NCBI GenBank assembly: GCA_965204595.1
Contig: CBDBEW010000005.1
Coordinates: 742,565-806,564, forward strand
DNA from: Candidatus Aldehydirespiratoraceae bacterium
Lineage (GTDB): Bacteria > Actinomycetota > Acidimicrobiia > Acidimicrobiales > Aldehydirespiratoraceae
Direction of reading: 5' to 3'
Length of the DNA: 64,000 nucleotides
In this document: positions 7,599-31,641 of the stretch, piece after piece
Position numbering within the stretch: position 1 is the first letter of the stretch
Layout of the letters: each line of letters starts with the position of its first letter
Program-made: the position numbers and the translations under genes
Notes under the pieces: generated by a model
Database searches by the model: none
What the model saw: only the letters and a program-made list of their open reading frames with translations
What the model was told of the DNA's origin: nothing

Positions 7599-7964
7599 TT
7601 AAGGAGTTGTGGTCGCAGCGATCGGTTCGGTGTTTCGCCTGCCGAAAACGGCACCTTCAAGGGTGCTAATGCGCTCGCCATGTTGCATCATGTGCTGGAG
7701 TTTGTCGCCGTGTTCTTGTTGTGTCGCGGCCATTGCGGCCACGCTGACTTTCAAGGCGGTGACCTCCATGCCAAGCTTGTCAACCTTCGCTTCAAGTTTA
7801 TCGATCCGGGTGGTAAGCTCGGTTTCGAGTTTGTCTATTTTGGTGCCTAGGTCGTTGATGAGGTGTTTCATGCCGTCGACTAGGTGCTTCATAAAGTAGC
7901 CGAATCCTGCGAGGATGCCGGTTCCTAGTACGGTGATGATCGTTGCGATCAAGGTTATCTCCAT
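7599..7964 (-). CDS. Small membrane-anchored coiled-coil protein, paralogue 2 (one extra repeat unit)
   Basis: 121 aa. Same N-terminus and tail as 6536-6940 but only KIDKLE-TELTTRIDKLE-AKVDKLG. Confidence 0.7.
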   Translation of the reverse strand: MEITLIATIITVLGTGILAGFGYFMKHLVDGMKHLINDLGTKIDKLETELTTRIDKLEAKVDKLGMEVTALKVSVAAMAATQQEHGDKLQHMMQHGERISTLEGAVFGRRNTEPIAATTTP

Positions 7965-11554: not shown

Positions 11555-11850
11555 TAGTGGACAGTTGTCCGATTTGCTCGGAGAACACCCTCTCTTGTCG
11601 AGGTGCAGTTATTGAAGGAAGGCATGGTCTAAACCATCAAGAGATTTGAGCTTTATTGTGAATGTAGATGGGGGAGAGAGTTAAGCAGGGGTTGCGTCAC
11701 GGCGACATAGAGCCGTCGGTGTATTGGCATTGATGAACACAAGATGTTCGTGGCGAGCTGGTAGTTACTCGGACTCTCGAGGCTCTAGTGAGACTTCGAT
11801 AGAGCCTGCACTACAAGCGTTTGTGGACGCACCATTCGAAAAGACTGAAT

Positions 11851-12273: not shown

Positions 12274-12355
12274 ACCCCGAAGGTGCTGTGGGCAGGCGAA
12301 ACGCTCACCGCTGGGCCGCTACCGGCCCTTGACACAGAGGGCTCCTCCATAATGA

Positions 12356-13681
12356 TGAATCACACCGGGTTTGGTAGAGACTTGGTTTTGTGTGTGTCTG
12401 TTGGTTTGTGGTTGGGTTTTGATTGTAGTGGGTGTTTTGTGTTCGGTGGGGGTGGTGTATCGGCCACCTAGGAGTTGGCTGTGGCTGCGTCGGTGGTTGT
12501 ACCAGTCGACGTATTCGAGGGTGGCGAACTCGACTTCGCGTAGGTTTTGCCAGGGTTCGTGGGGGTAGATGAGTTCTGATTTGTATAGGCCGTTGAAGCT
12601 TCAGGTCATGGCGTTGTCGTAGCTGTCGCCCACTGAGCCGACCGAGGCGACGATGATGTTGTTGTCGTCGAGTCTGGTGCTGTAGCGGATGGACAGGTAT
12701 TGCGATCCGCGGTCGCTGTGGTGAACCGCTCGGTCGGTTCTGCGGCCGTCGCGACGGCGTGTGGCGATGGCCATGGTCTGACGCGTCGAGGGCCAGTTTG
12801 GTGTGTGGTGTGTGTGATGCCCGCCAGCGGAGAACACGACGCGAGTAGGTGTCGATGACAAACGCCAGATACACCCAACCGCAGCCGGTTCGCACCCGAC
12901 TGAGATCGGCGAGCCGCAACCGGTTTGGGGCGTCGACACCGAAGTGGCGGTTCACCAGGTCGCCGGGTGTGTCGCTGCCGACGGGTGGCGTGGTGGTGAC
13001 CGGTTCTTTGCCTCGGCGGGTGCCGACTAGCCCCATCTTAGACATCAAAGGTTCAACGGTGCAATCCGCCACCACCACGCCGGCGACGCGGTTGAGGTGG
13101 TCCCACATTTTCGCGGCAACATAGGCACTGTAGTTGGCTTCATAAACTCGCGCGATCAACAAAGCGAGCTGCGCGTCGCGCAAAGCACACGCCGACGGCG
13201 CCCGCTTGGTGAACGCGTAGTAGGTGGACGGGGCGATCTGTCGCCGTGCTCTGTGAGCACCGCGCAAAACAGGATCGAAGTCGAACCGGTGCCGGTAAGC
13301 GTCGATGAACGACACTACAACCTTGACTGACCGTCGAGCTCCACCCCGACCAAAGCCGAAGCCGCGGCCAAAATCTCGTTCGCTCGGCGCAGCTCACGGT
13401 TCTCGCGTTCAAGATCCTTACCACGCTCACGCTCGACGCTAGTCACCCCCACACGCACCGTTGTCGATCTCAAAACGATGCACCCACTTGCGCACCGACT
13501 CCACAGACAGACCCAGCTTCAAAGCAACCGAACAAATCGCGTCGGCGAGATCCATAAAGCCTCTCATTATCAAGCACCATCCTCACCGCCCGCTCACAAA
13601 GCTCAGCCAGATATCTTCTGTTGTTTGTAATAACTCCATCCTCTCAAGGAAAAAAGTCTCCACCAAACCCGGGGTGATTCA
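12356..13681 (-). mobile_element. Degenerate IS3-family insertion sequence (1326 bp)
   Basis: Terminal inverted repeats TGAATCACACCGGGTTTGGTAGAGAC (12356-12381) and reverse complement TGAATCACCCCGGGTTTGGTGGAGAC (ending at 13681). OrfA-like ..AELCERAVRMVLDNERLYGS.. and OrfB-like ..WVYLAFVIDTYSRRV.., ..HHSDRGSQYLSIRY..SVGSVGDSYDNAMT*SFNGLYKSELI.. lie in several frames with an in-frame TGA. The transposase is therefore non-functional as sequenced. Confidence 0.85.
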
Positions 13682-14288: not shown

Positions 14289-15239
14289 TCAATGTCGTGC
14301 TGGGTGTTTGAAAAGGTTTTTGAAGTGCCAATCAATGTGCTTGGTGGCGGGGGGTGAATAGCCGCGCTGAGGTAGCCGCATGGGTTGGTTTGACAGCGCG
14401 AGAAGTGGACGCGAAGATGCTTGTTCAAAAATGTTTAGGTGTTGACTCACTAATATTTTGGGTCGATCCTCTTGTACTGTAAGCCCGATTGCGCCTCTGT
14501 CGAACAACTGATGATGTAACGCACATAGTGCTACGCCGTTTTCGATCACACTGGGGCCTTGCATTTCCCGTGTGCGAACGTGTGCTGCGGCTACACTCAC
14601 GGGACGGTCTCCTAGATAGGCTCCAAAGTCACAGAATGAACATCGGTATTCGTATGCCAGCAGAACGATTTTGTGAAACGATTCGTCTAACTCAAGCGAT
14701 TTCGTATCAGGTAGGCTGAGTCCAACTCTACCCAACAATTCTTCGTGTCTTGATTCTGGGAACTCCGACTCCAACAGGAAAGTGACGATTTGGTTACGTT
14801 GTATTGGGTCTAGGATCACTTCGGTGAACTCTTCAGAGACCCTGCCGGTTGCCTGTTGTCGTAAGAAGGTCACATTCTCACGTGCTGGGGTTGAGCTTGC
14901 AGAACTGAGAGGTGCTGACATCGCAAAGATGTTTCTCCCTCGAGTGTCTGTTACTTGCCAGAGCTTTGGTTTGCTTGCCAAGTAGACGAATGGATGCTCG
15001 GGCTTTGGACTTGAGTTTCCGACTTTAAATGTATTGAGCAAATCTCTTAGGTCAGTTTCGGCATCTTCAAACCGGAACTCAGGGTCGTGTCCATTGGTCA
15101 AACGACCGATCAACCACAACAGCAGTAGTAGTTTGTAAGGTGCGCGCTTGCCCGACGCATCCGTGTAAACCGTAATTGATCGGATCACGTCTATCCACAC
15201 GTCCGCACTGTTGGCATCGGCTGTCACGCCAATCATCAT
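14289..15239 (-). CDS. HNH (HNH_2-type) endonuclease, putative PT-DNA-binding type IV restriction enzyme, paralogue 2
   Basis: The track ORF (to 15575) has a 112-aa extension with no counterpart in paralogue 1. MMIGVTADANSADVWIDVIRSI.. at 15239 aligns with the paralogue 1 start MMLGMTADANCAEAWIDVIRSI... Same GKRAPYK(L/P)LLLLWLIGRL, PEHPFVYL and CSFCDF...AAHVR...ENGVALCALHHQLFDRGAIGL motifs. Confidence 0.65.
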   Translation of the reverse strand: MMIGVTADANSADVWIDVIRSITVYTDASGKRAPYKLLLLLWLIGRLTNGHDPEFRFEDAETDLRDLLNTFKVGNSSPKPEHPFVYLASKPKLWQVTDTRGRNIFAMSAPLSSASSTPARENVTFLRQQATGRVSEEFTEVILDPIQRNQIVTFLLESEFPESRHEELLGRVGLSLPDTKSLELDESFHKIVLLAYEYRCSFCDFGAYLGDRPVSVAAAHVRTREMQGPSVIENGVALCALHHQLFDRGAIGLTVQEDRPKILVSQHLNIFEQASSRPLLALSNQPMRLPQRGYSPPATKHIDWHFKNLFKHPARH

Positions 15240-15404
15240 AGTCGCCATCGACGGTGGCATGCACATGCTAGCTCCATTATCCACGGGGAGTGCCTTGAAA
15301 TCGGGTAGGAGCAGTTTTGGGCGCGCTCTCAAATCAGGACCGTCTCCGTCTATCGTGCGATGCCAGCAGGCAGGGCTTTCAAGCTTCGCCGCATGGAGTG
15401 GAGT

Positions 15405-15650
15405 TACACCGGTTTCGCCGATGGCGTGGTGTTCAATGAGTCGGTGCTGTTCGGCGACTGGCTTGAGGCGCATGGCATGTCGGTTGCGGATTTGGTGGGT
15501 TTGGCAACTGATTATTGTGTGCGTGTTACGGTTCTCGAAGCGGTGGGTTTTCGCATGAAGGTCTTGTGGGGGCATTGCGCGGGGTAGGCTGTTGAGAGTT
15601 CCGAGGCTGCGCTCACCGAACTCGCCGCCGCTGGTGTCACATTGAAGTAG
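15405..15650 (+). pseudogene. pncA: Nicotinamidase/pyrazinamidase (isochorismatase family) 3' fragment with in-frame stop
   Basis: YTGFADGVVFNESVLFGDWLEAHGMSVADLVGLATDYCVRVTVLEAVGFRMKVLWGHCAG*AVESSEAALTELAAAGVTLK* is collinear with the C-terminal half of PncA proteins (..YSGF...L..WL...GV..VDVVGIATD.CV......A...G....VL.DLTAGV....T..AL.EM..A.V.L). Internal TAG at 15585-15587. The N-terminal half is missing. Confidence 0.7.
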
Positions 15651-16035: not shown

Positions 16036-17577
16036 TCAGGTCGGCTCGGGGAAGCGGAGACGTGGGCCGGCTTCGGCCCAGTCCATGTGGTCGCGGATGT
16101 ATTCGTTCGATCCGTCGCGCACGGGTGTGTAGTCCCAGGAGTAGTGGCCGTTGATGGTCATGGCGGTGTGGAGCATCCGTCGGCTTCGCTGTGATTCCAG
16201 GACCCGTCGGCGGATGTCGTCGCTGTTCCAACGCTGCGCGGTCTCTGCGGCGAAGTTCGCGGACAGCTCGGCGTGGGCGGGGTCCTCTGCGAGGTTGGTG
16301 CGTTCCAGCGGGTCGGCTTCGACGTCGTAGAGCAGGGCTGGGTCGCTGTCGCAGTGGATGTACTTGTGCCGGCCCCGGCGGATCATGAACATCGGGTGTG
16401 CCGTCATCTCGCCGGTGTACTCGGCGATGGTCTCGTCTACGGGGTCGTGTCCTCCGGTCGCGCTCTCCCAAAGGCTGCGCCCCGCCGGCGGCACGACCGG
16501 TTCGATGCGTCCGCCGCGGGTGCCGTTGCCGTTGCCGCCGGTGCTGTCTCCTGCGATGTCGAGCATGGTGGGCAGCAGGTCGAGCAGTGAGCAGACGTTG
16601 CTGACGCTGCGGTCGGCCACACCGGGCCCGGCCACGATCAACGGCACCCGCAGTGACCGTTCGAAGAAGTTCATCTTGAACCACAGGCCGCGGTCTCCGA
16701 GCATGTCGCCGTGGTCGCTGGTGGCGATCACGATGGTGTTGTCGAGTTGGCCGGTTTCTTCGAGGACTTTGATCATCCGCCCGAGCAGGGAGTCGAAGTA
16801 GCTGGTGTTGGCGTAGTAGGCGTGGCGGGCGTTGCGGCACTGGTCTTCGGTGTAGCCGATGGTGTCGGCGCAGATGCCGTGGCGGATTCTCAGCGTGTGG
16901 GGGTCGGGCGATTCGAGTGTGTCGTCGGGCAGGTCGATGTCGTCGTGGTTATAGAGGTCCCACCATTCGGGGCGGGCCACGTAGGGGTCGTGGGGGTGGA
17001 TCAGCGCAGCCGCCATGAACCAGGGTCGTTCGTCGGCGTCTCGGGCGAAGTCGTAGAGCTGGCGTGTGGTGGAGAACCCGACTTCGTCGTCGTAGTCGAT
17101 CTGGTAGGTGGCCAGGGCCTGACCGGCCTGTGAGAGGCTGTCCATGTTGTGGTACCACTTGTCGATCCGCTCGTCGGGCGCGTCCCAGTCGGGTGTCCAG
17201 GAGAAGTCGGCGGGGTAGATGTCGGTGTTGAGCCGGCGGGTGAACCCGTGGAGCTGGTCGGGTCCCACGAAGTGCATCTTGCCGGTCAGCACGGTGCGGT
17301 AACCGGCGAGGTTGAGGTAGTGGGCCATGGTCGGGACCCGCGCCGGGAACTCGGCCGCGTTGTCCCAAGCGTCGATGGCGGTGGCCTGCCGGCTTGCCAG
17401 CATCGAGAACCTCGACGGGGCACACAGCGGGACGTGACAGTACGCCGCGTCGAAGCGCGTGCCCCGCTCGGCGAGGGCGTCCATCGCCGGCGTGCGAACC
17501 AGCCGATGGCCGTAAGCACCAGTGAAATGCGGCGCCAACTGATCCGCCATCACCATCAGAATGTTGGGTTGTCTCAC
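16036..17577 (-). CDS. betC: Choline-sulfatase family sulfatase (paralogue 2)
   Basis: 513 aa, collinear and highly similar by eye to 4687-6192. Same CAPSR signature. It has a small G/N-rich insertion (GDSTGGNGNGTRGGRIEP versus GDYCGKGRVEP) and a divergent C-terminus. Confidence 0.8.
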   Translation of the reverse strand: MRQPNILMVMADQLAPHFTGAYGHRLVRTPAMDALAERGTRFDAAYCHVPLCAPSRFSMLASRQATAIDAWDNAAEFPARVPTMAHYLNLAGYRTVLTGKMHFVGPDQLHGFTRRLNTDIYPADFSWTPDWDAPDERIDKWYHNMDSLSQAGQALATYQIDYDDEVGFSTTRQLYDFARDADERPWFMAAALIHPHDPYVARPEWWDLYNHDDIDLPDDTLESPDPHTLRIRHGICADTIGYTEDQCRNARHAYYANTSYFDSLLGRMIKVLEETGQLDNTIVIATSDHGDMLGDRGLWFKMNFFERSLRVPLIVAGPGVADRSVSNVCSLLDLLPTMLDIAGDSTGGNGNGTRGGRIEPVVPPAGRSLWESATGGHDPVDETIAEYTGEMTAHPMFMIRRGRHKYIHCDSDPALLYDVEADPLERTNLAEDPAHAELSANFAAETAQRWNSDDIRRRVLESQRSRRMLHTAMTINGHYSWDYTPVRDGSNEYIRDHMDWAEAGPRLRFPEPT

Positions 17578-18896: not shown

Positions 18897-19844
18897 TCAC
18901 TGTCGAGCCGGCTGTTTGAATAGATTCTCGTAGTGCCAGTCAATGTGTTCTTTGGCGGGCGGCGAATAGCCGCGTAGAGGGGGGCGCATGGGTTCGCGTG
19001 ACAGCGCGAGCAGAGGGGGTGACGATGGTTCGTCGAAAACGTTCAGATGTTGGCTCACAAGAATCTCACGCTTGCCATCGGTCACGCCGAGACCGATGGC
19101 ACCACTGTCGAACAGTCGGTGATGGAATGTACATAGCGCGATACCGTTCTCGATCCTGCTTGGTCCCTGCTTGGCGTGCATGCGCAGGTGCGCTGCATCT
19201 ACCCCCACCGAACGCCCGCGCAGATAGGCACTGAAGTCACAGAATGAACACTTGTTTTCGTAGGCGAGCAGAACTTTCTCGCGAAAAGCTGGGTCGCGTC
19301 CGACCGTTTTGTTTTCAGTTAAACAGAGTCCAACGCTATTCAACACATCCTCATGTGTTGATTCTGGAAATTCTGCGTTCAAGAGGAAGCGAACAATCTC
19401 GTCACGTAGTATCGGATCCTTGAGTGCCGCTGCAAACTCGTTAGAAACTCGTCCATTTGCTTGCTCCCGCAAGAAGCTGACTGTCTCGCGCGCGGGAGTG
19501 GATCTCGAAGGATCGATTGGGCCTGACATTTTGAAAATGTCCTGTCCATCCTTGTCGGTCACTTGCCACAGTTCAGGTTTGCTACCGAGGTATACAAAAG
19601 GATGTTCAGGTCTAGGTTTTGCGCGTCCATATCCGAACTCGTCGAGCAGCTTCTTCAAGTTAGATTCGATATCCTTGTAGCGAAATTCAGGCTCGGCTCC
19701 ATTAGCCAATCTTCCGTCAGCCACAAAAGAAGCAACGGCTTATAGGGTGCGCGTTTGCCTGCTGAATCTTGATATCGGCGCATCGATTGGATGATGTTGT
19801 ATCTATTCGCTTACGTCGTTGGACTCGGCTTGCACGCCAATCAA
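18897..19844 (-). pseudogene. HNH endonuclease paralogue 3 (operon-linked), N-terminal region broken by two frameshifts
   Basis: Intact from GTG 19724 downstream (..GRLANGAEPEFRY...PEHPFVYLGSKPELWQV...CSFCDF...AAHLRMHAKQGPSRIENGIALCTFHHRLFDSGAIGL). Upstream, LIGVQAESNDVSE (frame 1) switches to NIIQSMRRYQDSAGKRAPYKPLLLLWL (frame 2) and back to frame 1. The TTG at 19844-19842 lies 1 nt after the SNF2 stop. Confidence 0.75.
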
Positions 19845-19845
19845 C

Positions 19846-21570
19846 TTACTCTCTAACGCGAGTGCTGCAAAGAATTCCCAACCAATTCATCAAGCGCCCA
19901 TTAGGTGCCAACACCCGAGATTGACCTAAGTAGGCTTTGGTAGAGTCTCCCGATGAGTGAACGCGACATCTCATTCTTTCTAATTTGATGTCGGGTTGTA
20001 AGAGTTTGCTGGCGAAATCGGGACGGTGCTGGAGCGCGTCGATGAGTTGCGCGAACGTTAACTCCTTGCGGTCGAGCAGGGGTTGAAGTCGGTCTTCTAC
20101 CGTATTTGTGCAGGTCAAGTTATAAATCGTGACGGGCTTGTGCTGCCCGATGCGCACGATGCGGTCTATCGCCTGAGAGTTGGTGGACGGATTCCACCAT
20201 CGGTTGATGAAAATTGCATGGTTCGCCTCGGTCAGAGTGAGGCCCTCAGACGCGACGCGCATGGATGCGAGCAGCACCGAACACTGGGCATCGGTTCGGA
20301 ACCTCCGGATGATCCGGCCGCGCTGATCGAGTTCAAGTTCGCCGGTAAGTAGAGCGGCATTGTCACCCATCTCGGCTCGCAACCGCCGCGCAAGTTCTCT
20401 CAGCGGACCGAGTGTGTAGGAGAACACAACGCACTTCTCGCCTCGATCAGTGATCTCTTTTAGCAACTCCACTGCGCGGTTGAGCTTTGAACTATCGCCC
20501 GTCGTCGGGTCCATATCGCAAATGGTGCGGAGATCGTTGAACAGTGCCAGCCACTCTCCTTGGCGCACTCCCTGTGAAGCTGACGAGTATGCCGATCGCT
20601 GCGCTGGTGAGAGCACCACCACTTCAGTTCGTTCGGTAACCGGCGGGAGTTCTGGAAGCACCGATTCCTTGAGGCGTCTCAGAATGTAGGGTCGCGCTCG
20701 AGCCCGCAAAATCTCAGGCCCAAGCCTCGCGTCGTCGACGGCGAAACGGATCGGCTCCAACAGGGACAGCAGCCCGGCCAGATCGTCAGCGTCGCGTTCG
20801 ACCGGTGTACCGGTTAGTGCCCAGAGTCTCTTCGTCTTGATTCGTCTCAGGCCTTTGTGGGCCAGCGAATCCGATTTGCGAAGTCGATGCGCCTCGTCAG
20901 CAACGATGACATCGGGAGGGTGTTGCAGAAGGCTGGACGGTGGGTCTCTGACATCCTCATAGCTCGCTATAAGCACGTGACATTGAGCAGCTGCCTGCTT
21001 CCAGTTCAATACACGGCCGCGCCCTGCACTACTTGTGTAGTGCCCGACGACGAGTTCAGGTGCCCATCGGCGCGCTTCCGCCTCCCAGTTCGCGCGTAGC
21101 GTCTTCGGAGCGACGACGAGGCAGAAACTGATCCTGCCAGCGCGGAACAACCGTCGAAGCGCCGCAATCACTTGGATCGTCTTGCCGAGTCCCATGTCAT
21201 CAGCGAGGATAGCGCAATCGCGACGCAACAGCCAAGCCACTCCTGTGCGCTGGAACGGGTAGAGTTGGTCGTTCACTCGACGCGGCAATAATAGCGGAAG
21301 CACCAAATCCAACGCACGATCGCGATCGCGCTCGTGACCTGGCCTTGGATCAAAAGACCACGAAAGTGTACATGGTGCAACTTGCTTGAGCTTCCAGACG
21401 ATACCAGCATCGAGCGAAAGCAATAGTTCTACAGCCCGAGCCAAACGCGCCGGAACTGTGTGATCGCTGCCATTCAACGCAACCTCAAGGATAGTCCGCT
21501 CACCCGCTAGCGTCAGTTTCGCCGAGAGCCCTTTCTTATCAAGCGCAAGCGACCATAGCGGGACACACAC
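19846..21570 (-). CDS. SNF2-family helicase
   Basis: 574 aa. LADDMGLGKT (motif I), VADEAHRLRK (DEAH), ALTGTP, and C-terminal helicase motifs LLASMRVASEGLTLTEANHAIFINRWWNPSTNSQAIDRIVRIGQ. Confidence 0.85.
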   Translation of the reverse strand: MCVPLWSLALDKKGLSAKLTLAGERTILEVALNGSDHTVPARLARAVELLLSLDAGIVWKLKQVAPCTLSWSFDPRPGHERDRDRALDLVLPLLLPRRVNDQLYPFQRTGVAWLLRRDCAILADDMGLGKTIQVIAALRRLFRAGRISFCLVVAPKTLRANWEAEARRWAPELVVGHYTSSAGRGRVLNWKQAAAQCHVLIASYEDVRDPPSSLLQHPPDVIVADEAHRLRKSDSLAHKGLRRIKTKRLWALTGTPVERDADDLAGLLSLLEPIRFAVDDARLGPEILRARARPYILRRLKESVLPELPPVTERTEVVVLSPAQRSAYSSASQGVRQGEWLALFNDLRTICDMDPTTGDSSKLNRAVELLKEITDRGEKCVVFSYTLGPLRELARRLRAEMGDNAALLTGELELDQRGRIIRRFRTDAQCSVLLASMRVASEGLTLTEANHAIFINRWWNPSTNSQAIDRIVRIGQHKPVTIYNLTCTNTVEDRLQPLLDRKELTFAQLIDALQHRPDFASKLLQPDIKLERMRCRVHSSGDSTKAYLGQSRVLAPNGRLMNWLGILCSTRVRE

Positions 21571-21618
21571 GGTAGAGATCCTGATGTCTGCTGGGGTTGG
21601 CTGTGCCCGCCAAACCAG

Positions 21619-23037
21619 TTACCGTTGCAACCCAGACACAATCTGTTGCCACATGTCGGTTGCTTCGTCCTCAGCGGACAACGGCAGATAACTCTTCCAT
21701 AGGTTGTGAAGGCTGTTTTCTTCTGAACCGGAGATCTCGTCGTCACTGAGTTGATCGAGGCCGATTTGCCAGCGGACGATCCGCTCGACAAGACGAAGTC
21801 TAGGATCTCGATTTTCGTTAGCAATTCGCCAACTACCAGTTTCCGACATCACGAGGAGAATGTGTCTCCAAGGTGGAGAGTGAGCATCCCAGGTGACTTG
21901 CGCTAGCGGTGACAGTACCAGCGAAGCGTCCGTTTGAGTAAAAGCGGCACCGTGGGCCATTGATCTCGCTTGCGCGTCGTCTAAGATTGCTCTGACTAGA
22001 TCAGCAAAGAGGATTTGAACTATCGGCCAAAATAGCACACAGTCTTGTGATGTTTCAGCGTTCCCCTCATCTTTCGGAGCTGGGTTGTGGATACGGCTCG
22101 TGCTTGGCTTATCGTACAAGACCGGTAATGCTTCCAATATCGCGTCCCAACAGAACATCAACTCCGCTTCCAATGCATCTATTTCTTCCTCAGGTGGTCG
22201 AAACTTCACGTACTCTTTGATCCGAGTCTTCTCAGAACCCCAACCTTCATTCCGCCTCTGCGCTGTTGACAACAAGCGGGTGTTGAGAACGTAGAGTATC
22301 TCGAGGGTTGTGAAATGATTAGAACCAGGAGAGAGGTTCTTGCCGCTGGACATCTTGACTTTGGACGAATCAAATTCCGAACCCGGCTCAGCGAAAAACG
22401 AGTGGTTCGAGATAAGTCGACGCGTTATTATCGCAATCGCATCATCTTCATCCATGACGATATTGTCGTATTGTGACATCGGTTTTGCGTATCGGTTGAG
22501 GTTCCCGAACAGACGGCGGTATCTCAATAAGAATTCGCTCTCGGATTCCATCTCCGTAGGTAATACACAAATCACACTGACTTCCTCGTTGCCAAAGTCC
22601 TGCGGTATGCTGAAATCTGTCTCCTTGTCAAGAAGGAGTCGGATTGCTGCTAGGCGATGCTGACCATCGAGAGCATAATAGTTCTGTTCACCATTGAAGG
22701 TCAGGATTCCGAACGATTCTGAAAGACGGCGATCATCTCTGAACAGTCTCAGTTCAGGGTTGTCCTCAAGACTGACTGGGCGCCATTGAGGTTCTCCATG
22801 CAACACTGCTACTACAATGGACGAGAAGAACCGATCGTCTTGCCTAACGAGGTATTTGGCGATCTCGTTCGTGGCGCGATTCTTGTTCAATTGGCGTTGA
22901 ATTGCATCAGATAGTTGAGTCGGACCGTGTATCTCTTCTGCGTACCGAATGTTCTGCGCTAATTCACGCATTGACATTCGCACCATAAAGTACTCCCAAC
23001 GTCCCATCTTTGCTTTGATTGCTGGATAGATTTGCAT
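21619..23037 (-). CDS. DGQHR-domain (DndB/ParB-like) protein
   Basis: 472 aa. ..QRQLNKNRATNEIAKYL.. and ..YYALDGQHRLAAIRLL.. are the diagnostic DGQHR/DndB-family motifs. Long unassigned C-terminal half. Confidence 0.8.
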   Translation of the reverse strand: MQIYPAIKAKMGRWEYFMVRMSMRELAQNIRYAEEIHGPTQLSDAIQRQLNKNRATNEIAKYLVRQDDRFFSSIVVAVLHGEPQWRPVSLEDNPELRLFRDDRRLSESFGILTFNGEQNYYALDGQHRLAAIRLLLDKETDFSIPQDFGNEEVSVICVLPTEMESESEFLLRYRRLFGNLNRYAKPMSQYDNIVMDEDDAIAIITRRLISNHSFFAEPGSEFDSSKVKMSSGKNLSPGSNHFTTLEILYVLNTRLLSTAQRRNEGWGSEKTRIKEYVKFRPPEEEIDALEAELMFCWDAILEALPVLYDKPSTSRIHNPAPKDEGNAETSQDCVLFWPIVQILFADLVRAILDDAQARSMAHGAAFTQTDASLVLSPLAQVTWDAHSPPWRHILLVMSETGSWRIANENRDPRLRLVERIVRWQIGLDQLSDDEISGSEENSLHNLWKSYLPLSAEDEATDMWQQIVSGLQR

Positions 23038-23052
23038 CGTATTTCCTCTTCT

Positions 23053-23538
23053 CTATTTGATTGATTGAGCTGGTCCAACTTTTCCGGTAAGCACCATGCC
23101 TCTGGGAACTGTTCGATTTGCAGGTGGATCGAAAGCTATTATTAGCTGGCGTTCGGCTTCCCTAAGCCATCTGTCAAGTTGGTGGATATTCCCTGACGGC
23201 ACTCGCGTGAATGCGAAACGTAGTGTGCCGAAGTTTGACTTACATTTTTGAACGATTGGATTGGTGTTATTTGAACTGTGTTGCTTGAATCGACGGTGAA
23301 GGTTCGAAGACTTGCCAACATAAATTACGGTGCTGATAAGCTCTGGAAGATTGTATTTGTTCGACAACTGGAAGCGATCAGTGACGAGCAGATAGATTCC
23401 AGAGTACTTCGGAATTGATTGCTGAAAGGTAATGTCGAGCTTCGTATAGTACCATTCTGTGCGTCTCAGTATCTCCATCAGTTGTAACCAAACATTTTGT
23501 CTGGTCGAAAGGCCATTTGACGACACAGCCATCAGCAC
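23053..23538 (-). CDS. GIY-YIG nuclease-domain protein
   Basis: 161 aa. SGIYLLV...VIYVGKSSNLHRRFKQH...EAERQLIIAFDPPAN follows the GIY-(x10-11)-YIG...R...H...E...N pattern. Confidence 0.75.
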   Translation of the reverse strand: MLMAVSSNGLSTRQNVWLQLMEILRRTEWYYTKLDITFQQSIPKYSGIYLLVTDRFQLSNKYNLPELISTVIYVGKSSNLHRRFKQHSSNNTNPIVQKCKSNFGTLRFAFTRVPSGNIHQLDRWLREAERQLIIAFDPPANRTVPRGMVLTGKVGPAQSIK

Positions 23539-24899
23539 TCCTCGGAATGGGGTCTCGCTAGGGCGCGCGTGCTCGTATCGCTCGTCGTTGGCACCCCGTC
23601 TTTGGCGGTGTTCTTCAACATGCCCTTTACCGGTTTGCCTAGTTTGACACCTCGGTAGAATCGTTCTGATGTAGTTGATGTAGGGATGAATGACTTTGGT
23701 GGAGTACGCTTTTGCGGATTTCTGCGATCTGGTGGAAGTTCAGGTTTCAAGACTATTGAGACATCACCATCCTCATGGAGAACTAGACAAGCAGTTTTGC
23801 CGTCACAGGCCGAGATAGCCTTCAGTGGAGAACTTACGCGTCCCATCTCTGGACCCGCCGGAGAGGTTGGGCGCCAGATGACGGAGACATCAGGGGATGG
23901 ATGGGGATTTCGCACCGCAGCAGTCGTCTTCTGACCCCATTCACATCCTAGCGACACTGCGATTTCGGCAGGAATGCCCCTGATGCTGTGTCCTCGTAGA
24001 TTTCGTTCATGCACTTCGAATATCCAGTATGGATCGCCGTGGATGTCTCGTCCGTCCACAACATCGTCAAGTTCGCCGATAACCACATCGTGGTGGGTGA
24101 CTTGACTGACCCAGCCATTTTCCAATCTGAAGGCGTTGGAAGCAATACACGCGCGAACGCTCGTCTCACTTACTCCGAACAGGCGAGGGAGCTCGTCGAG
24201 CAGTCGGTTGAGGCGAGTGCTGCCTCCATCCTCCACTATGCGTTGAACGATCTCCGCAGGGATTCCTTCGTATTCGTCCTCGATCCAGACTGCAAAGCCC
24301 CAGCGCGTCTTGTCTGCCCGTACCACGTCAGGTAACGCCCAGAAGCATGTTCCTACACGCTCAGGCGACAACCCGCTTAGCTCTGCGATCTCATCCTTTG
24401 TCGCTGGGCGGCCCAGTGCCTGCAGCGCGACTAACGTTCGCGTTTCGGCACTTCCGATGAAGTCGGCGGATCCCTCTTCAGGCCTTGCTAATCGTTCATC
24501 ACCAGTGCCTTGCTGGAGACTCAGGAGATTGCTAGCACTGGAAGAAATCGGCTCAACTTTGTTGTAAGCGAGCAACTCATCGAGCTCCTCGTCGAATGCT
24601 TCGCCAATGTCGTCGATGAACTTGGCATCGTTGAATTCGTCGTCGGCAAACACGTCGAACTCAACACCCCATTGAGTCACCCGTGCCAGGCTACGAAGTT
24701 TCGAATCTAATCTCGCTTCGCTGCCGAATTCGGAAATGTCCCAAGGAACGACATCCTCATTCGTAGAGTCAGAAAAATCGGCAGGGTTGCACTCATTATG
24801 CTGTTCGAGTTCAGCATCCCAAGCCAGGACGTGATCTGGATGGAGAACCGGGTCTCTTTCCTCGTAGTGGATCGGTTCTGTTGGGTTTATAGGGCGCAT
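23532..24899 (-). CDS. Hypothetical protein: acidic N-terminus, possible winged-helix segment
   Basis: 455 aa. Start overlaps the sspD stop by 13 nt and the stop overlaps the GIY-YIG start by 7 nt. The segment TLVALQALGRPATKDEIAELSGLSPERV looks like a wHTH (HARE-HTH-like), but this is a guess. No family recognised. Confidence 0.5.
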   Translation of the reverse strand: MRPINPTEPIHYEERDPVLHPDHVLAWDAELEQHNECNPADFSDSTNEDVVPWDISEFGSEARLDSKLRSLARVTQWGVEFDVFADDEFNDAKFIDDIGEAFDEELDELLAYNKVEPISSSASNLLSLQQGTGDERLARPEEGSADFIGSAETRTLVALQALGRPATKDEIAELSGLSPERVGTCFWALPDVVRADKTRWGFAVWIEDEYEGIPAEIVQRIVEDGGSTRLNRLLDELPRLFGVSETSVRACIASNAFRLENGWVSQVTHHDVVIGELDDVVDGRDIHGDPYWIFEVHERNLRGHSIRGIPAEIAVSLGCEWGQKTTAAVRNPHPSPDVSVIWRPTSPAGPEMGRVSSPLKAISACDGKTACLVLHEDGDVSIVLKPELPPDRRNPQKRTPPKSFIPTSTTSERFYRGVKLGKPVKGMLKNTAKDGVPTTSDTSTRALARPHSEEC

Positions 24900-25735
24900 A
24901 TGGTGCAGGGGAGGGTGTCGTCGTCTTCGTCTAGGACGTCGGCGAGGGCTTCTATTAAGGGGATATTCGATCGGGTTTTGGTGGCTCGGGCTAGGGATGC
25001 CTCGTGGCGTTCGAGTATCTGTTCGCGGCGAGATCGGAGTTGCAGCAGGGTCTCGCCACCGGACCAGGTGTACTGTCGGCCGCGCATGGCCTGGTCGCCG
25101 AAATCGGCGTCGCCGTCGACCCCGGCATCTTGTAGAACTTTCTGCTCAATCGCGACCGCCCGCTCGAACAATTCGGGATGACGCTCCGAAAGGCCGATCC
25201 ACTCGGCTTTGCGCTGGTAGAAGCAGAAATAGCAACCTGACCTTGTGCGCCACTCGTAATACGCGGGCAGCCCGATGCCGGCATCGTCGAGGATGCACAT
25301 GACACCGTCGTGGTCAATGCCGTCTTCAATGAACGGGAACCGAGTTTCGATGTTGGGCTTGGTCGATATGTAGCCCTTGCGGTTGGCCTCATCGGCGCGG
25401 ATCGCAACATAAGACACAGCAGGCGCGTCGCCTATCCACTCCTCAATCGGCTTGATCTTCATGTTCGTGGTACACCAGCGCATCTGCGGTGACGGCAGCG
25501 CGCCACGAAACACCTCGAACCAGTGATCGAAACCTCGTGAAGCGTTGAGCGTAGCGATGGGCTTGCCGAGAATCGCCTCCAGTCTCGTCAAATACTCGTA
25601 AGTCTCGGGCAACTCTGCGCCGGTGTCGCAGAAGAAATATTCCATCTGAGGAATCTCGCCACGCAGATACACAGCTAGGGCACTTGAATCCTTACCCCCA
25701 GAGATTCCGCAAATGTGCCGCAGTGCCTCAGCCAT
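24887..25735 (-). CDS. sspD: PAPS-reductase/DndC-like PP-loop ATP pyrophosphatase (SspD-type)
   Basis: 282 aa. N-terminal PP-loop GISGGKDSSALAVYL, then RWCTTNMKIKP and CYFCFYQ motifs of the PAPS-reductase/DndC superfamily. Position follows the DUF4007 and ATPase genes, as in SspABCD. Confidence 0.75.
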   Translation of the reverse strand: MAEALRHICGISGGKDSSALAVYLRGEIPQMEYFFCDTGAELPETYEYLTRLEAILGKPIATLNASRGFDHWFEVFRGALPSPQMRWCTTNMKIKPIEEWIGDAPAVSYVAIRADEANRKGYISTKPNIETRFPFIEDGIDHDGVMCILDDAGIGLPAYYEWRTRSGCYFCFYQRKAEWIGLSERHPELFERAVAIEQKVLQDAGVDGDADFGDQAMRGRQYTWSGGETLLQLRSRREQILERHEASLARATKTRSNIPLIEALADVLDEDDDTLPCTICAL

Positions 25736-28700
25736 GATGCGCTGACCTGCCGATCTCGACTACCGAACCCGCTTTGCTTGTGCAGGTCGCGCTGGTGATA
25801 GTTGCGGTGGCGTTTACACTCCCAACTTCCGGCACAGAGCCAGTTTGGGTTGCGCGTCCGGCCTCGGATACTAGTCCAATTTCGTCACCATTATCCCGCC
25901 GCTCAGTGACGCTTGGGCCAGAGTCGGTGCCCTCGACAGATTGGTTTGGCAGAAGGCGTTCGCACAGCAACGCCAGCAGAGCGTGCTCTGCTCGCTGAGA
26001 TGAACCCGTGAGGTCTGCCATATCCCCAAGAACACGGTCAAGTGATTTATTGAGATCGTCTCGCTGAGCTTGGTCTAAAGCAAGCAAGCGAATGTGTTCA
26101 CTACCATCGGGGCGGGTGACGGTAACCCGAAGAGCGTCAAAAGCACCCGGGCCGTGGGCGCGTCGCTCGGCGTGAAGAGCCAACAACCGTTGGAACGCGG
26201 CGACTTGCTCGGGCAATTCACGCTTGAACCTATGGTGGTCGTCATCACGCCACTCCGCAGGTGCCTTTTTTGCCACAACAGTAGCGATGCCCTTGATCCA
26301 GTCGGTGTCGCTGTCGACACTGTCGTTGGCGAGTGCGTACACGAACGCTTTCACATCTGGGTTGAGCACTTCGTCTGCTAGGGAAGCCGCTTGCCCACAA
26401 ACTGCCAGACGGTTCTTTTCAGCACTGGTATCAAGCAACAACTTTGTGAGGTTCCCCAATAGTGCCGAGTAGCAAACCTCAAGTTCGTTCAGTGCCACAC
26501 TCACCGATTCGGTAAACGAAGCAGCGGCAGGGTAGGATTTGTCGCTAGCCTCCACAGGCATGAAAGCGAGTGCTTCGGGCAATGCACGAAACAGCAAATC
26601 GTCTGGCTCTACCGCTCCAAGCAGGGCTGCGCGCACAAGCCTTGTTTGTTCGGAAAGGCTCGAAGTTCGCAACGTGTAGTTGTCGAGCACTCGAATTCGT
26701 GCCACGAGGTGTGAGACGATAGCAAGGACATTGGCCACTCTGCGCTTACCACGAACCGGGCGGACATCAAGCCGATTGGCGAGTTCACCGATAACCTCGC
26801 GGCGGGCACCTCTGGTATTGGCGAAATGCTTGATGTCGAAATGGCCGGGATTGCGGACCATGCGCTCGGAAATCTCAGTTGTGAGCAGGGGCTTGAAAGT
26901 GCCGTGCTCATAAAGAGCAACATTGTCGGAGGCCGCGAGCAGACCAGCGGTCACAAAAACGGGCACCACAGCCGCCTTCATCCCCACAGGCGGACACAAC
27001 AGCACAGCGTAAACATCGCGCAGGTTCATGCGGCGAACCCTCGCCCGGTCAAACGAATCTTGCATCAAGTCCCAAGCCACAGCCAGAGACTCGTCAGATG
27101 GCCGGCCAAACGCATCTGCACCCGCGCTTTCCTTCACGTGGATGTGTGTGCGCTTCAGGAACGCTCGGTACATTGCAACCTCAGGACCGTGACCCTCGAA
27201 ACCCAGGTCGGGTTGATCAGAATGTTCGATCATTCCCTTGAGCAGAAGACGGCGGGCTTTAGACCCCTGGGTTGTGAGGTCTGAGCGGTTGAGCATCTCG
27301 TTGCCAACAAGGGGAGTGTGTGGATAAACCTCATCACAAGCCTGCGAAAGAGCCGAACTACCCCTACCCGCCGCCAGTTCCACACCGTTTTCGCCTTTGA
27401 GCAGCACCCACCTACAAGTTGCTGAGTTGAAAGCGTCAGAAACGGCCCGGTCAAAGACAGCTCGCGCCGAGGCGAGCCGTTCACCTAGTTCGCTACGAGC
27501 TACCCGATCCTCGACTACAGAGGGGTCTTCAAGAGCGGCAAGTAGTGCATGAACTTCCCGGGCGGAGCCAGCGAACTCGCCAATGTTTGCGGGGAGAGCG
27601 ACCAAGACGGGTTTGGCACCGTTCCCCGAGGAATCCATCTGGGGTACCTGCGGCTCGTTGTCCACAGCGAGTAACACCGTGCCGTCGTAACAAGAGAACG
27701 CATCGGGGGGGGGGGGGGGGGGCATATTCCATTGCATTACTATCGAAGTAGCGCACAGAGAACATCCTGAGCGTGTCGTTTTGTGAACTGTGACGAGCGG
27801 CGACCAGCGGCCGAGGGGCATGCACAGAAGACAAAACTTGCACCAGCGGTTGTTGCTCGGCTTGTTTACGCGCCGCGTCCACGAGACGATTCAGGTCAAC
27901 ATCGGTGCCTTGCCAAACCCGGTACTCGTCTGCGAACTCCCGATAGGTGACTAAACCACCTGCCTCAAGTAAGGCGAGGACATCGTCTGTCTTGGTGTCG
28001 ACTAATCGCAGGAGTTCCCTTGAAGCTCTGAGGACACCAGAAGTTGCCACCAGATTGAGCAGTGCCACCGACTTGATGACACGCTGTTGGGAAGCCGTCA
28101 ACCCGTGAGTATCGCGTAGCCTGACAACAATCTCGATCCAACGGCTTATGTCACCACCCTTAGCTGAGGTGGTAAGCGAGAAAGCGTCGCTCGCAACAAA
28201 ATAATCGTACACGCCGTCAAGACCCAACGAAGGCAGCGAACCGGTTGGCGGAAAAGAGGTCTCAGCCAAGAAAGTTGCTGCGCTGTTCGGGGCTGACCCG
28301 GCGAGGAAAGAAAAGAGAGTGCGTTCCTGTTGTCCATAGCGACTGCACAACTCAGGTAAAACTAGAGCTGCGAGTGGGTGTAGCGGATAGTTAGCCGCCA
28401 CCACCTTCGCATCGGCGAGTTCAGCGATGCCAAGCGAGCGCATCTTTTCGGCCTCAGATTCCGCCCACCGTGAAATTTCGGCGCGCAGGTTCCGATCATG
28501 CACATCAAAGACTGTGCCAATCAAAGCGCGTGTCTGCGCGGGCGACTCCACGAAGGCAACATCTTCAAAGCGTCCCTGCACTTTAGCCCACTCACGGCGT
28601 TGGGTGCGAGTCGCCCCAACCAGGCAGTCATCAAACGACAAATGCTGAAGTGTCAGCAAAAAGATCGGCAGTCCAGAACCCTGACCAGCCTCCGCGAGTT

Positions 28701-29373
28701 GTTGCAGCAGATAGGGGTCTGTGTTGGTGGCACCATCTGCGATCGCTTCAAGATTCTTGCCAAACTCGTCGATGATTAGCAGAAGCGGAGCATCCTGTGC
28801 GAGACAGCGGGCAATGTCAAGTAACGCTGCAGGTGACGGCCCCGAACTTCGGGGGTCGCCCCTGCGGACATCTTCAAGAGCCCCCCGCAAGGCAGGTGCC
28901 GCCGCAAACTTAGACTTCGGTGGAATCTTCCCAAAACGCTGGCGCACAGCCGTTTCAAGGGCGCGAAGTATGGTGTGAGTCAACGGCTCACGTTGGGCGG
29001 TCACCAAACCCCGGTTGAAACAGGACTCGACAGTGGCGTGGCGAGAGTGGGCTTGTCGAGCCAAGTCTGTAACAGATGGTGACACCTCCGATAGCAACGA
29101 CAACGCTTTTGAGCGGGTTGCACCAGGTGGACCTAGCACGGCATCAAGGAGTAAGGCCAGTGAAGACTTTCCAGAACCGTATGGGCCTGTCAACGACCAA
29201 GCCCCGCCCGCCTCGTCTGTGGCTGCCGCGCCGATCACTCGCTCCACAACATCGAGGGTTCGAGCCGTGACCACATACCCCTCAAGAGGTTCGAGACGGG
29301 ATGCATCGCGTTCAAGGTTGGCCGACCTCGCATAACGGCCGACAACTGCGATGGAATCCGAAAGCATCGCCAT
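25728..29373 (-). CDS. sspC: Large P-loop ATPase (SspC-type), split into two ORFs by a frame error in a C18 tract
   Basis: ORF 29373-27529 carries Walker A TGPYGSGKSSLALLL and Walker B LLLIIDEFGKN. Its sense reading ends at ..NAMEYAPPPPP. ORF 27821-25728 makes sense only from PPPPPPDAFSCYDGTVLLAV.. onward. Both cross the same poly-C run, and 17 or 20 C would give one ~1215-aa protein. Confidence 0.7.
27705..27722. repeat. G18 homopolymer (C18 / poly-Pro on the coding strand) inside sspC
   Basis: Counted directly: G at 27705-27722. Confidence 0.95.
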
Positions 29374-29394
29374 CAGGTTACCCCAGACTCGCCA

Positions 29395-30471
29395 TCAGAC
29401 TGCCCCGAGCGAGAGCGCAGGTGGCTCGTTTAGCCTGCGCATAACCGAACCACGATCACGACCAAAACCGAGTGCCTCTATAACCTCGTCGTCCACCGCA
29501 CAGTCGCCTCGGCTACCGGCGAGCATTCCCTCTTGCACCGAATCGAAGTAGCGATCGAGCAGCTTTGGGGCGACCTCCGCCGGGTCTTTTGACCAAACAA
29601 GTTGTTTCACACCAGTCACTGTAGTCAAATTTAGTGCGCTCTCACAGCTAACACAAGACTCAAGTAGCACGCCCAATTCAGCTTCGCTCAACTTGAAGGC
29701 TCGACCGGGTGACCCGGGATCATTAGCTAACCGTCCGATGGTAACAGTACTGCTCGCCGTGTGGGTTCGAGCGATCCAATCGAGCACCGCATAGGTTGCG
29801 ATCTCTGCTGGCAGCGTAGGTTTGTTACCCAACGTGAAGCGGTGCCGACCAACCTCAGCGGAACTACTAATCAGGTTCAGTTCCCGCAACGGGCAGTTCA
29901 AAACGTCGTCTATAGCTGACCGAGTTGATGGGGGAGAGGGTGCATAAGTGCGCAGCAGGACTCCAAGGTCTTTTTTGATAGACGACTGACTCGGGGAGGG
30001 CCAAGGCGAAGTCCCGCCCACAACCCCGCCTAAAAGTGTGGAAATCGACATCTCAAGGTCTGCCTCTCTGAACTCAACTGCACTGAACTCGTTGAAGGCG
30101 AGCCACCAGACAGGTAAGCGTGAGCGAGGAGCGAGCAGTAGCCAATGCAGCAACCAGAGAGTCCCTGGGTCTTCCATGTATGGGTCCCACCCCGAATCAC
30201 CGAAAAGCGCATTGCCGAAGCGGGTAGGCACACAACCCCGAGACCTGCCGCTTGAGCGCGAATCCTCAACGATGACTTTGGCAGCGAGACCCCAAAAACG
30301 AATCGATCGGACCATGTTTTTGCCAACGCCCATAGTCACTGGTGCATCGGGTTGAGTGAAAATATAGGGGTCTTGCGCGCACGCCGCAAACGCTTTACGG
30401 AACCATCCATAACGTGGGTGGAAGGTCTCGTGGCGTGCGAATGTGGGCAAAGCAGCGTCTATCAAGCGCAT
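29395..30471 (-). CDS. sspB: DUF4007-family protein (SspB-type)
   Basis: 358 aa. N-terminal FARHETFHPRYGWFRKAF is the DUF4007 hallmark. The start codon directly abuts the stop of the cysteine desulfurase gene. Confidence 0.75.
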   Translation of the reverse strand: MRLIDAALPTFARHETFHPRYGWFRKAFAACAQDPYIFTQPDAPVTMGVGKNMVRSIRFWGLAAKVIVEDSRSSGRSRGCVPTRFGNALFGDSGWDPYMEDPGTLWLLHWLLLAPRSRLPVWWLAFNEFSAVEFREADLEMSISTLLGGVVGGTSPWPSPSQSSIKKDLGVLLRTYAPSPPSTRSAIDDVLNCPLRELNLISSSAEVGRHRFTLGNKPTLPAEIATYAVLDWIARTHTASSTVTIGRLANDPGSPGRAFKLSEAELGVLLESCVSCESALNLTTVTGVKQLVWSKDPAEVAPKLLDRYFDSVQEGMLAGSRGDCAVDDEVIEALGFGRDRGSVMRRLNEPPALSLGAV

Positions 30472-31641
30472 TCAGTGTGTCTCCTGAGTCATATCTCTAA
30501 CATAGCGAACGGCTGTGACAGTCGCTTCGACCGCAGCGTCAATCTCTTGTGCGGTTGTGAAACGGCCGAGGCTGAAACGGACCGTCTCAAAGGCAGCATC
30601 ACGGCTCAGACCCATCGCAATCAGAACCGCGGAGGGGTCGATAGAGCCGGCACTACAAGCACTACCTGTTGACACCGCCACAGGGTCCATCTGTGCAACC
30701 ACGGCCTCGGCAACAGCATCCACGAAACGGATGCTCGCAGTGTTGGGGAGTCGCCGCTCAACATCACCGTTCTCTGAGACATTGGGCAGTTTCGCCCTAA
30801 TCCCAGAGACTAGACGATCCCGCAGCCCGCCCACTCGCTGCGCCTCAACCACCCACTCACTCTCGGCGAGTTCTGCAGCCCTACCGAAACCAACGATCCC
30901 TGCGACATTTAACGACCCCGACCGCAGCCCTCGTTCCTGCCCACCCCCATGAATGATCGGCTGAAGTTGGCGCAAGCTACGGCGAGTTCCAATCAGCGCA
31001 CCAACCCCGCCCGGCCCACAAATCTTATGGCCACTAATCGACACAAGGTCGGCCCCAATCTGTTGCATGTCAAAAGGCAATCGCCCCACAAGTTGAGTGG
31101 CATCACAATGGAAGAGCGCACCGCAAGCATGAACTCGCTCTGCGATCGCAGCCACATCGTTGAGCACACCGGTCTCACTGTTTGCCGCCATCACCGACAC
31201 CAAACCCACATCGTCTTCGAGCAATGCTTCCACATCATTGGGATCAACAAAACCACCCTTAGTGGCTGGGATCACATCGGACTTAGCGATCCCGCGGTCA
31301 CTGAGCCAACTTGTTGTCTGATGCACCGAGGCGTGCTCCACAGCAGAGACGAGAATGCGCCGCCGATTGTTGCCACCACCCTCAACCACGCCACGAAGAG
31401 CCAGATTATTGGCTTCGGTCGCACCTGCAGTGAACACCACATCGCCACCTCGTCCGCCAACAAGGGCTGCCACCTGCTCACGAGCTTGCTCCACCGCAGC
31501 AGCTTGGAAGCGTCCGAAGCGATGGCTTGCCGAAGCGTTGCCCACCCCCTCGCTTAGCACAGGCAACATCGCTTCCACCACCCGCGTATCGACAGGTGCC
31601 GACCCGTTGTAGTCAAGATATATCTTCTGCCTGTCTTTCAC
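30472..31641 (-). CDS. sspA: Class V aminotransferase / cysteine desulfurase (SspA/DndA/IscS-type)
   Basis: 389 aa. IYLDYNGSAP, FTAGATEANN, HKICGPGGVGAL (PLP-lysine region) and active-site STGSACSAGS are typical of NifS/IscS. Confidence 0.85.
   Translation of the reverse strand: MKDRQKIYLDYNGSAPVDTRVVEAMLPVLSEGVGNASASHRFGRFQAAAVEQAREQVAALVGGRGGDVVFTAGATEANNLALRGVVEGGGNNRRRILVSAVEHASVHQTTSWLSDRGIAKSDVIPATKGGFVDPNDVEALLEDDVGLVSVMAANSETGVLNDVAAIAERVHACGALFHCDATQLVGRLPFDMQQIGADLVSISGHKICGPGGVGALIGTRRSLRQLQPIIHGGGQERGLRSGSLNVAGIVGFGRAAELAESEWVVEAQRVGGLRDRLVSGIRAKLPNVSENGDVERRLPNTASIRFVDAVAEAVVAQMDPVAVSTGSACSAGSIDPSAVLIAMGLSRDAAFETVRFSLGRFTTAQEIDAAVEATVTAVRYVRDMTQETH

Follow-up and report, generated by a model that had tools for sequence, protein, structure and literature searches.

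Does an 18-nucleotide (nt) run of cytosines inside a gene for DNA modification mark a decayed gene, a miscounted base or a switch? The question is raised by a 64,000-nt stretch of DNA from a Candidatus Aldehydirespiratoraceae bacterium, referred to here at its full length as the window. In it, the run (C18) lies within sspC, the gene for the ATPase of the SspABCD writer of DNA phosphorothioation (PT). With a probability of roughly 0.6, we read C18 as a genuine hypermutable contingency tract, through which slipped-strand mispairing would turn the PT writer ON and OFF.

The original prediction placed an 18-nt poly-C run at 27705-27722 and held that it disrupts the frame of sspC. Indeed, exactly 18 G were counted there on the plus strand, corresponding to C18 on the coding (minus) strand, where the run reads GCC (CCC)5 C. 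The tract and the two parts of the gene that it separates are as follows.

27705-27722, minus strand: C18 homopolymer, putatively hypermutable tract that encodes poly-Pro and shifts the sspC frame
27723-29373, minus strand: N-terminal part of sspC (codons 1-551), AAA+/BrxC-like ATPase module
25728-27704, minus strand: C-terminal part of sspC (658 codons and the stop), intact, out of register with the N-terminal part when the run is 18 C

Translation in the upstream frame gives ...DSNAMEYAPPPPP, followed by RCVLLL... and a stop at 27529; in the 18-C state, this frame, ending in ...RYFDSNAMEYAPPPPP, continues as 57 unrelated residues up to that stop. The downstream frame reads MQWNMPPPPPPDAFSCYDG... 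(also written PPPPPPDAFSCYDG...) and extends to the stop at 25728. When the tract was altered in silico, C17 gave a single sspC open reading frame (ORF) of 1214 codons and C20 one of 1215, so that 17 or 20 C restore the frame as had been claimed. The accompanying claim that the downstream ORF makes sense no earlier than the Pro run was borne out by an alignment with 40 orthologues, in which homology is found on both sides. The window contains just two G runs that reach 12 nt or more, against 0.02 expected from 100 dinucleotide-preserving shuffles, and a chance origin of C18 is excluded. The count of 18, as opposed to 17 or 19, could be off by one in the assembly.

The identity of the gene as sspC was confirmed by an end-to-end profile match and by its operon. 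The protein encoded by the 17-C version aligns from residue 16 to 1115 with positions 2-1104 of the 1104 positions of the PADLOC SspC profile PDLC02781 (1043 bits), and also matches the PADLOC BrxC (BrxC/PglY) profile (6e-92). The gene belongs to a complete sspA-sspB-sspC-sspD writer operon on one strand (minus, 24887-31641), with Pfam and PADLOC matches for all four members. Its N-terminal part contains a Walker A motif, GPYGSGKSS, and the motif DEFGKN, both invariant among 28 aligned orthologues. For an AlphaFold2 model of one orthologue, P0001 (mean predicted local distance difference test score of 75), the top Foldseek matches of the N-terminal ~580 residues were the BrxC N-terminal ATPase and ORC/Cdc6, in agreement with the published placement of SspC in the ORC/Cdc6 clade of AAA+ proteins (PMC10853773). 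The window tract corresponds to SspC residue 552, close to the end of this N-terminal ATPase module. All sspC tract sites, including those of the relatives described below, fall in coil between secondary-structure elements of the P0001 model; in-frame changes in the length of a poly-Pro or poly-Gly stretch should therefore be tolerated.

A gene designed to give two products, an N-terminal ATPase and a separate C-terminal protein, was considered and rejected. No natural split is present in the best 120 full-length orthologues, and the tracts of other lineages, at residues ~57, 150, 405, 570 and 950, would make the split point inconsistent. On direct reading of the sequence, no Shine-Dalgarno sequence precedes the ATGs located just 5' of the C18 run.

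The best 120 database matches of SspC are uninterrupted proteins of ~1153-1209 residues with at most 74% identity. No full-length SspC above 74% identity was found in the protein database, and hence no in-frame allele of the window lineage. Compared with the best 40 orthologues, the window protein carries a five-residue insertion (AMEYAPPPPPD versus Q-----VEPPD) in a variable stretch between the invariant residues Y542 and D563. None of these 40 full-length proteins has a poly-Pro run at the site, and the closest of the full-length orthologues, from locus L023, has GAACCCCCCGAC there, encoded with a C6 run; for these reasons the window tract is, as judged from the alignment, a lineage-specific expansion of a Pro-Pro C6. 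A scan of genome contigs with the window SspC gave a best match of 63% identity, exact-protein look-ups of the window SspB and SspD for further assemblies of the same strain returned no record, and a variable-gap DNA-pattern scan of metagenomes for the tract flanks gave 0 matches.

A search with the C-terminal half of SspC led to a truncated protein, P0137 (86% identity), encoded on a close relative of the window, L108 (ERZ23495066 / SAMN17524316), with ~91% nucleotide identity across the ssp operon. L108 contains C12 at the same sspC site, with flanks identical to those of the window C18. The earlier suspicion of slipped-strand mispairing is judged sound. Both lengths are multiples of three (3n), and thus both are out of frame. 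It had also been argued that orthologues without a repeat here would weaken the idea of a switch; the 40 best full-length ones do lack one, but L108 has one, and other lineages have theirs elsewhere.

Two frameshifted copies could also be explained by non-adaptive decay, with G/C runs acting as mutational hot spots (for example, through weak indel repair) and these sspC genes being recently inactivated pseudogenes. A pseudogene would show a ratio of nonsynonymous to synonymous substitution rates (dN/dS) near 1 and further lesions, and neither was found when window sspC was compared with that of L108. At a synonymous divergence (dS) of ~0.25, dN/dS is 0.16 upstream of the tract and 0.22 over the 658 codons downstream of it, a departure from neutrality with a Fisher p = 2e-22. 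These 658 codons are free of stops in both sequences, leaving the tract as the sole lesion. The substitution pattern indicates that the downstream part, out of frame in both consensuses, has been under purifying selection through most of the L108-window divergence.

The relatives of SspC come from sponge metagenomes and from metagenome-assembled genomes (MAGs) of sponge symbionts, binned as Acidimicrobiia, Ca. Poriferisocius, Ca. Aldehydirespirator, Ca. Spongiisociaceae, Latescibacterota and Chloroflexota. Relatives of 55-60% identity are found in sponge symbionts belonging to several phyla, and this distribution suggests that members of the sponge community exchange the gene. To place the tract in this context, a non-redundant set of 40 loci, each sharing at least 50% identity with the window SspC and chosen by SspC homology and not by tract content, was surveyed for G/C runs. 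Runs of at least 9 nt numbered seven in sspB-sspC (172 kilobases, kb) versus two in the 3.2-fold larger flanking DNA (559 kb; binomial p = 9e-4), and those of at least 12 nt numbered five versus none (p = 7e-4). Such runs were absent from a further 46, more distant loci. Across all fetched sequences, tracts occupy seven different, independent sites, and their carriers comprise Acidimicrobiia and at least one gammaproteobacterial symbiont.

Site A, sspC residue ~57, just before Walker A: L008 G14, out of frame
Site B, sspC residue ~150: L040 C12, out; L051 C9, out; L006 C10, in; L104 C13, in; L107 C10, in; L105 C14, out; L106 C15, out
Site F, sspC residue ~405: L109 G11, out; L110 G12, out
Site C, sspC residue ~552: window C18, out; L108 C12, out
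Site D, sspC residue ~570: L032 G19, in
Site E, sspC residue ~950: L044 G13, out
sspB site, sspB residue ~275: L007 G15, out

The G12 of L110 recurs unchanged in L111, which was assembled independently. Taking all tract-bearing sequences together, 4 are in frame and 11 out of frame (2 and 5, respectively, in the unbiased subset).

These sites bear directly on the decay explanation. Decay is real in this clade: the sspC of L017 is broken by a 13-nt tandem duplication (about 11765-11800), L112 (2878-4034) has lost most of sspB and carries a frameshifted sspC beside a DDE transposase, and L107 has two frameshifts besides its tract. Moreover, most tract-bearing genes are out of frame. However, the tract is the sole lesion in 12 of the 13 tract-bearing lineages or strains, and 658-1041 downstream codons are stop-free with dN/dS of 0.18-0.25, even between two out-of-frame sequences. 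Nor would a genome-wide mutation bias enrich tracts in sspB-sspC over the flanks of the same genomes. Decay is accordingly held to be an improbable account of the tracts.

The same comparisons address a pure assembly artefact, in which a uniform and truly in-frame length (17 or 20 C) has been miscounted in the consensus. The length of an 18-nt homopolymer is difficult to call from long reads, and the window contig, at 809,574 base pairs (bp), is taken to be long-read. But the C12 of L108, on a separate scaffold that is short-read-style by its record name, is out of frame at the same site; short tracts elsewhere (C9, G11 and G12) are out of frame too, with G12 reproduced by two assemblers; and miscounting can create neither a tract nor its recurrence. 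Homopolymer-length error, the alternative offered in the original prediction, may thus affect the one-base count but is unlikely as the full explanation, and it is very hard to credit that artefact alone accounts for the observations. A poly-G artefact of two-colour chemistry was considered separately and rejected, as in every case the same gene runs on through the two flanks and is collinear with its orthologues.

Gene calls from sponge metagenomes give many SspC relatives as truncated proteins of 600-1100 amino acids (aa), as listed under P0137-P0255. Among these, P0154, P0179 and P0197 appear, by the lengths of their contigs, to be C-terminal fragments of the tract-split sspC genes of L008, L040 and L051. 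Four truncated relatives were examined: L108, L109 and L110 are split at a G/C tract, and L112 is decayed. Frameshifted sspC may therefore be commoner than the 40-locus sample indicates. In L007, the sspB of the main operon is frameshifted at the G15 tract, and a second, partial ssp copy (sspB and a piece of sspC for residues 484-847) is located upstream of that operon at 4719-6710.

Variation between strains was found in a Ca. Aldehydirespirator lineage represented by five contigs, four of them from sample ERZ25067264, that are 94.5-98.6% identical over ~5.5 kb. Within it, L006 (C10, in frame), L104 (C13, in), L105 (C14, out) and L106 (C15, out) share 96.0-98.6% identity, and the tract is their only indel. 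L104 (28x coverage) and L106 (12x), one in frame and the other out, differ by six substitutions in the 1041 downstream codons. In all four contigs the 1041-codon downstream frame is open, with dN/dS of 0.18-0.25, the out-of-frame pair included. Similarly, L040 (C12) and L051 (C9), both out of frame, give a dN/dS of 0.23 over 995 downstream codons. From these sequences, the Aldehydirespirator pattern is that expected of a contingency locus sampled in nature, because the repeat mutates far faster than its surroundings, occurs in both phases and lies in a gene that is otherwise maintained.

Constraint on an out-of-frame gene could also arise if expression were insensitive to frame. Here, RNA polymerase (or the ribosome on CCC codons) would slip, so that every tract length would yield some full-length SspC; the tract would act as an expression throttle, its length drifting neutrally while the whole ORF stays under selection. 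The frame states, which look random with about one third in frame, fit this account, as does the sharing of an out-of-frame phase by window/L108 and by L040/L051 across dS of ~0.22-0.27 with downstream dN/dS of 0.22-0.23. Rescue of frameshifts at homopolymers by slippage is, moreover, established for A/T runs (PMC6260861, PMC4256274; reviewed in PMC5009743). However, the bacterial documentation concerns A/T runs (PMC6260861), and no evidence was found for G/C runs in these taxa. In addition, in-frame alleles exist in the Aldehydirespirator lineage (L006 and L104), and tracts of just 9-11 nt, which are expected to slip less, are also out of frame. Frame-insensitive expression is regarded as the main rival of the switch, though a rather unlikely one.

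Returning to the contingency switch, the locus combines an over-long repeat within an ORF, a repeat length that differs between relatives, and a toggle between full-length and truncated products in an otherwise intact gene. We propose that an ancestral Pro-Pro C6, located in a surface loop of SspC, was lengthened to C18 by slippage. Homopolymers are known to change length at high frequency through slipped-strand mispairing, and the run would gain or lose bases in this way during replication, likewise at high frequency. Tract lengths of 3n+2 (e.g., 17 or 20) would yield full-length SspC and an active SspABCD writer; other lengths, such as 18 or the 12 of L108, would yield an AAA+ fragment of 551 residues that ends in a few nonsense codons, leaving the writer off. 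The outcome would be a heritable and reversible ON/OFF switch of DNA phosphorothioation and of the PT-dependent defence linked to it. We infer that switching is reversible within a clone, that PT is lost when the switch is OFF and that the switch is of selective benefit.

Several points weigh against such a switch. The window lineage has yielded no in-frame allele, the window C18 and the L108 C12 both being 3n, and across the tract-bearing set the in-frame state is not favoured. The 18-mer, on a contig of a size from which long-read assembly is deduced, can be miscalled by one base. The earlier idea of a switch is partly supported: it has been strengthened by the L108 C12, by recurrent tracts, by in- and out-of-frame alleles and by purifying selection; its weak side is that random frames fit RNA slippage equally well.

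Phase variation of DNA modification is well represented among known systems. The pglX gene of the Pgl system (BREX type 2) of Streptomyces coelicolor likewise contains a coding G/C homopolymer in the modification arm of a phage defence of an actinobacterium, and the system is inactivated when the run loses or gains a single base, as is proposed for sspC. Measured switching rates of 1e-2 to 1e-4 are given for the pglX G tract (PMC4365076, citing Sumby and Smith 2003). SspC, itself a BrxC/PglY-like ATPase by its PADLOC BrxC score and by Foldseek, adds a further likeness to Pgl/BREX. The switched gene differs, however, encoding a methyltransferase in Pgl and the AAA+ ATPase (or SspB in L007) of a PT writer here, and the tract measures 8 G in pglX compared with 9-19 nt in the ssp genes. 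Switching is experimental for pglX, whereas for ssp it is deduced from comparative data.

The type III mod phasevarions of Haemophilus and Neisseria and the poly-G/C loci of Campylobacter resemble the ssp tracts in having a repeat within the ORF of a DNA-modifying enzyme and length polymorphism between strains. In these loci, a simple repeat toggles an epigenetic mark by slipped-strand mispairing (PMC6435447, PMC12707154, PMC8355987). The mark is base methylation in mod phasevarions and backbone sulfur in ssp, and the hosts are small-genome, host-adapted pathogens in the one case and sponge symbionts of several phyla in the other. The ssp tracts, unlike those loci, arose at many positions of the same genes.

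Out-of-frame tracts that are conserved between relatives, with a constrained downstream frame, are also a feature of homopolymer frameshifts rescued by slippage. Frameshifts at poly(A) tracts in insect endosymbionts were reportedly described by Tamas et al. in 2008 and Wernegreen et al. in 2010. In the tssM gene of Citrobacter, a homopolymer frameshift is rescued by transcriptional slippage (PMC4256274). Such cases involve A/T runs with transcript evidence, whereas the ssp tracts are G/C runs known from DNA, with coexisting in- and out-of-frame alleles.

Among PT systems, SspABCD-SspE and SspABCD-SspFGH of Vibrio and E. coli have the same four writer genes in the same order as the window, and their writer is required for the linked defence (PMC8092258). 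For these canonical model systems, repeat tracts have not been reported. A 2018 review reported no simple sequence repeats (SSRs) in dnd genes or their promoters (PMC6435447), and a full-text literature search turned up no account of such tracts in dnd or ssp genes; the original prediction, too, was aware of no such switch described for Ssp or Dnd writers. The ssp tracts would thus be a known type of switch, SSR phase variation of DNA-modification genes, on a new target and recurrent across a guild of symbionts.

The other writer genes, and the genes that follow them, are encoded on the same strand as sspC.

30472-31641, minus strand: sspA, cysteine desulfurase, first gene of the operon (Pfam Aminotran_5, 7e-71; PADLOC SspA, 2.6e-127)
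29395-30471, minus strand: sspB, DUF4007 DNA-binding/nicking component (Pfam DUF4007, 1.9e-79; PADLOC SspB, 1.3e-98)
24887-25735, minus strand: sspD, PAPS-reductase-like sulfur transferase, overlapping the sspC stop (Pfam PAPS_reduct; PADLOC SspD, 2.1e-107)
19846-24899, minus strand: four genes after sspD, candidate effectors, namely
23532-24899, minus strand: 455-aa protein with no assigned function, first of the four
23053-23538, minus strand: GIY-YIG nuclease
21619-23037, minus strand: DndB-like DGQHR protein
19846-21570, minus strand: SNF2 helicase

The same set of four genes stands behind sspD in L030 (16013-20373), and the C-terminal domain of the 455-aa protein comes after sspC in most sponge-clade loci. 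The pair of DGQHR and SNF2 genes was also observed beside distant sspC genes (L043, L086, L091, L095 and L096). From this gene context, the 455-aa/GIY-YIG/DGQHR/SNF2 set may be an undescribed Ssp-linked effector module. The PADLOC models of SspE, SspF, SspG and SspH had no match among the 15 neighbouring ORFs scanned; where canonical Ssp systems have SspE or SspFGH, the window has these four genes and, nearby, three genes for sulfur-binding domain (SBD)-HNH proteins.

18897-19724, minus strand: SBD-HNH homologue, first of three paralogues (NF045808, 194 bits; cutoff 180; Pfam HNH_2)
14289-15575, minus strand: SBD-HNH homologue, second paralogue (NF045808, 198 bits; cutoff 180; Pfam HNH_2)
8214-9164, minus strand: SBD-HNH homologue, third paralogue (NF045808, 210 bits; Pfam HNH_2)

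NCBIfam NF045808 (cutoff 180 bits) is named 'phosphorothioated DNA-binding restriction endonuclease', and the N-terminal domain of the paralogue at 8214-9164 matches the sulfur-binding domain of SprMcrA (PDB 7CC9/7CCD/7CCJ, E = 3e-8). On these matches, all three are predicted to be PT-dependent type IV restriction endonucleases of the ScoMcrA/SprMcrA type. Their mutual identity is 61-71%, and the low-GC island that holds them also contains the PT writer. Further SBD-HNH genes occur near the tract-bearing sspC of L006/L107 and of L044. They were found near 3 of 8 tract-bearing lineages versus 1 of 33 others (p ~0.02), an association that, given uneven flank coverage, is a lead only.

The low-GC stretch, ~6000-32000, has a GC content of 0.49-0.59 (one 2-kb block reaching 0.64) compared with 0.60-0.65 in the flanks. 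Besides the genes above, it includes the following.

12305-13315: IS3 transposase fragment
10931-11554: NYN/HEC-09 protein
7332-7850: PIN protein

With its defence genes, this stretch is consistent with a horizontally acquired defence island.

The proximity of writers and PT-dependent nucleases touches on what an OFF state could mean for the cell. SspE is inactive without PT. By contrast, SspFGH damages DNA that lacks PT (PMC8092258), and enzymes of the ScoMcrA type, which cleave PT-DNA, do not tolerate a matching dnd cluster (PMC3009677), although context specificity is a property of sulfur-binding domains (PMC7470945). A speculative extension, which we consider doubtful, is that the sspB and sspC tracts in sponge symbionts of several phyla serve as a community-wide toggle between 'modify' and 'restrict the modified'. 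In the PT-positive state, the writer would be on, self DNA marked and PT-linked effectors armed; in the PT-negative state, the adjacent SBD-HNH nucleases would attack PT-marked phage or other foreign DNA while leaving the host unharmed. If this were true, phages from one subpopulation would be vulnerable in the other.

The second long tract of the window is G16 on the plus strand (C16 on the minus strand) at 1365-1380. It stands 17 nt 5' of a minus-strand ATG at 1347, which begins a gene that leaves the window at its left end. The encoded product, 449 aa or longer and taken to be secreted, starts with a signal-peptide-like sequence and contains DUF5122 beta-propeller repeats. In this classic promoter-type arrangement, C16 resembles the contingency tracts found in promoters or 5' untranslated regions of surface-protein genes, and its presence is counted in favour of the switch reading of C18. 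A common flanking element around tracts outside ssp (the window G16, L002 G11 and L051 C11) was sought by alignment and blastn and rejected, as no homology was detected. Wall proteins with SLH domains (PGA_cap, VanY) and two sulfatases are encoded at 1544-6192 and 16036-17577; both kinds of protein are typical of sponge-associated bacteria.

PT is partial and heterogeneous between cells, and a 2018 review likened this heterogeneity to phase variation (PMC6435447). If the proposed switch is real, slippery tracts in Ssp writer genes would be the first genetic mechanism for ON and OFF states of PT. Owing to their independent recurrence at seven sites, the proposal is testable in existing sponge metagenomes by relating tract length to the PT signal of each strain. 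A split sspC in these MAGs should be neither filed as a pseudogene nor corrected as an error. More broadly, the tracts suggest that bet-hedging in defence systems is favoured by selection in sponge communities, which are dense and rich in phages, and that the balance between PT writers and PT-dependent nucleases may be set through such switches.

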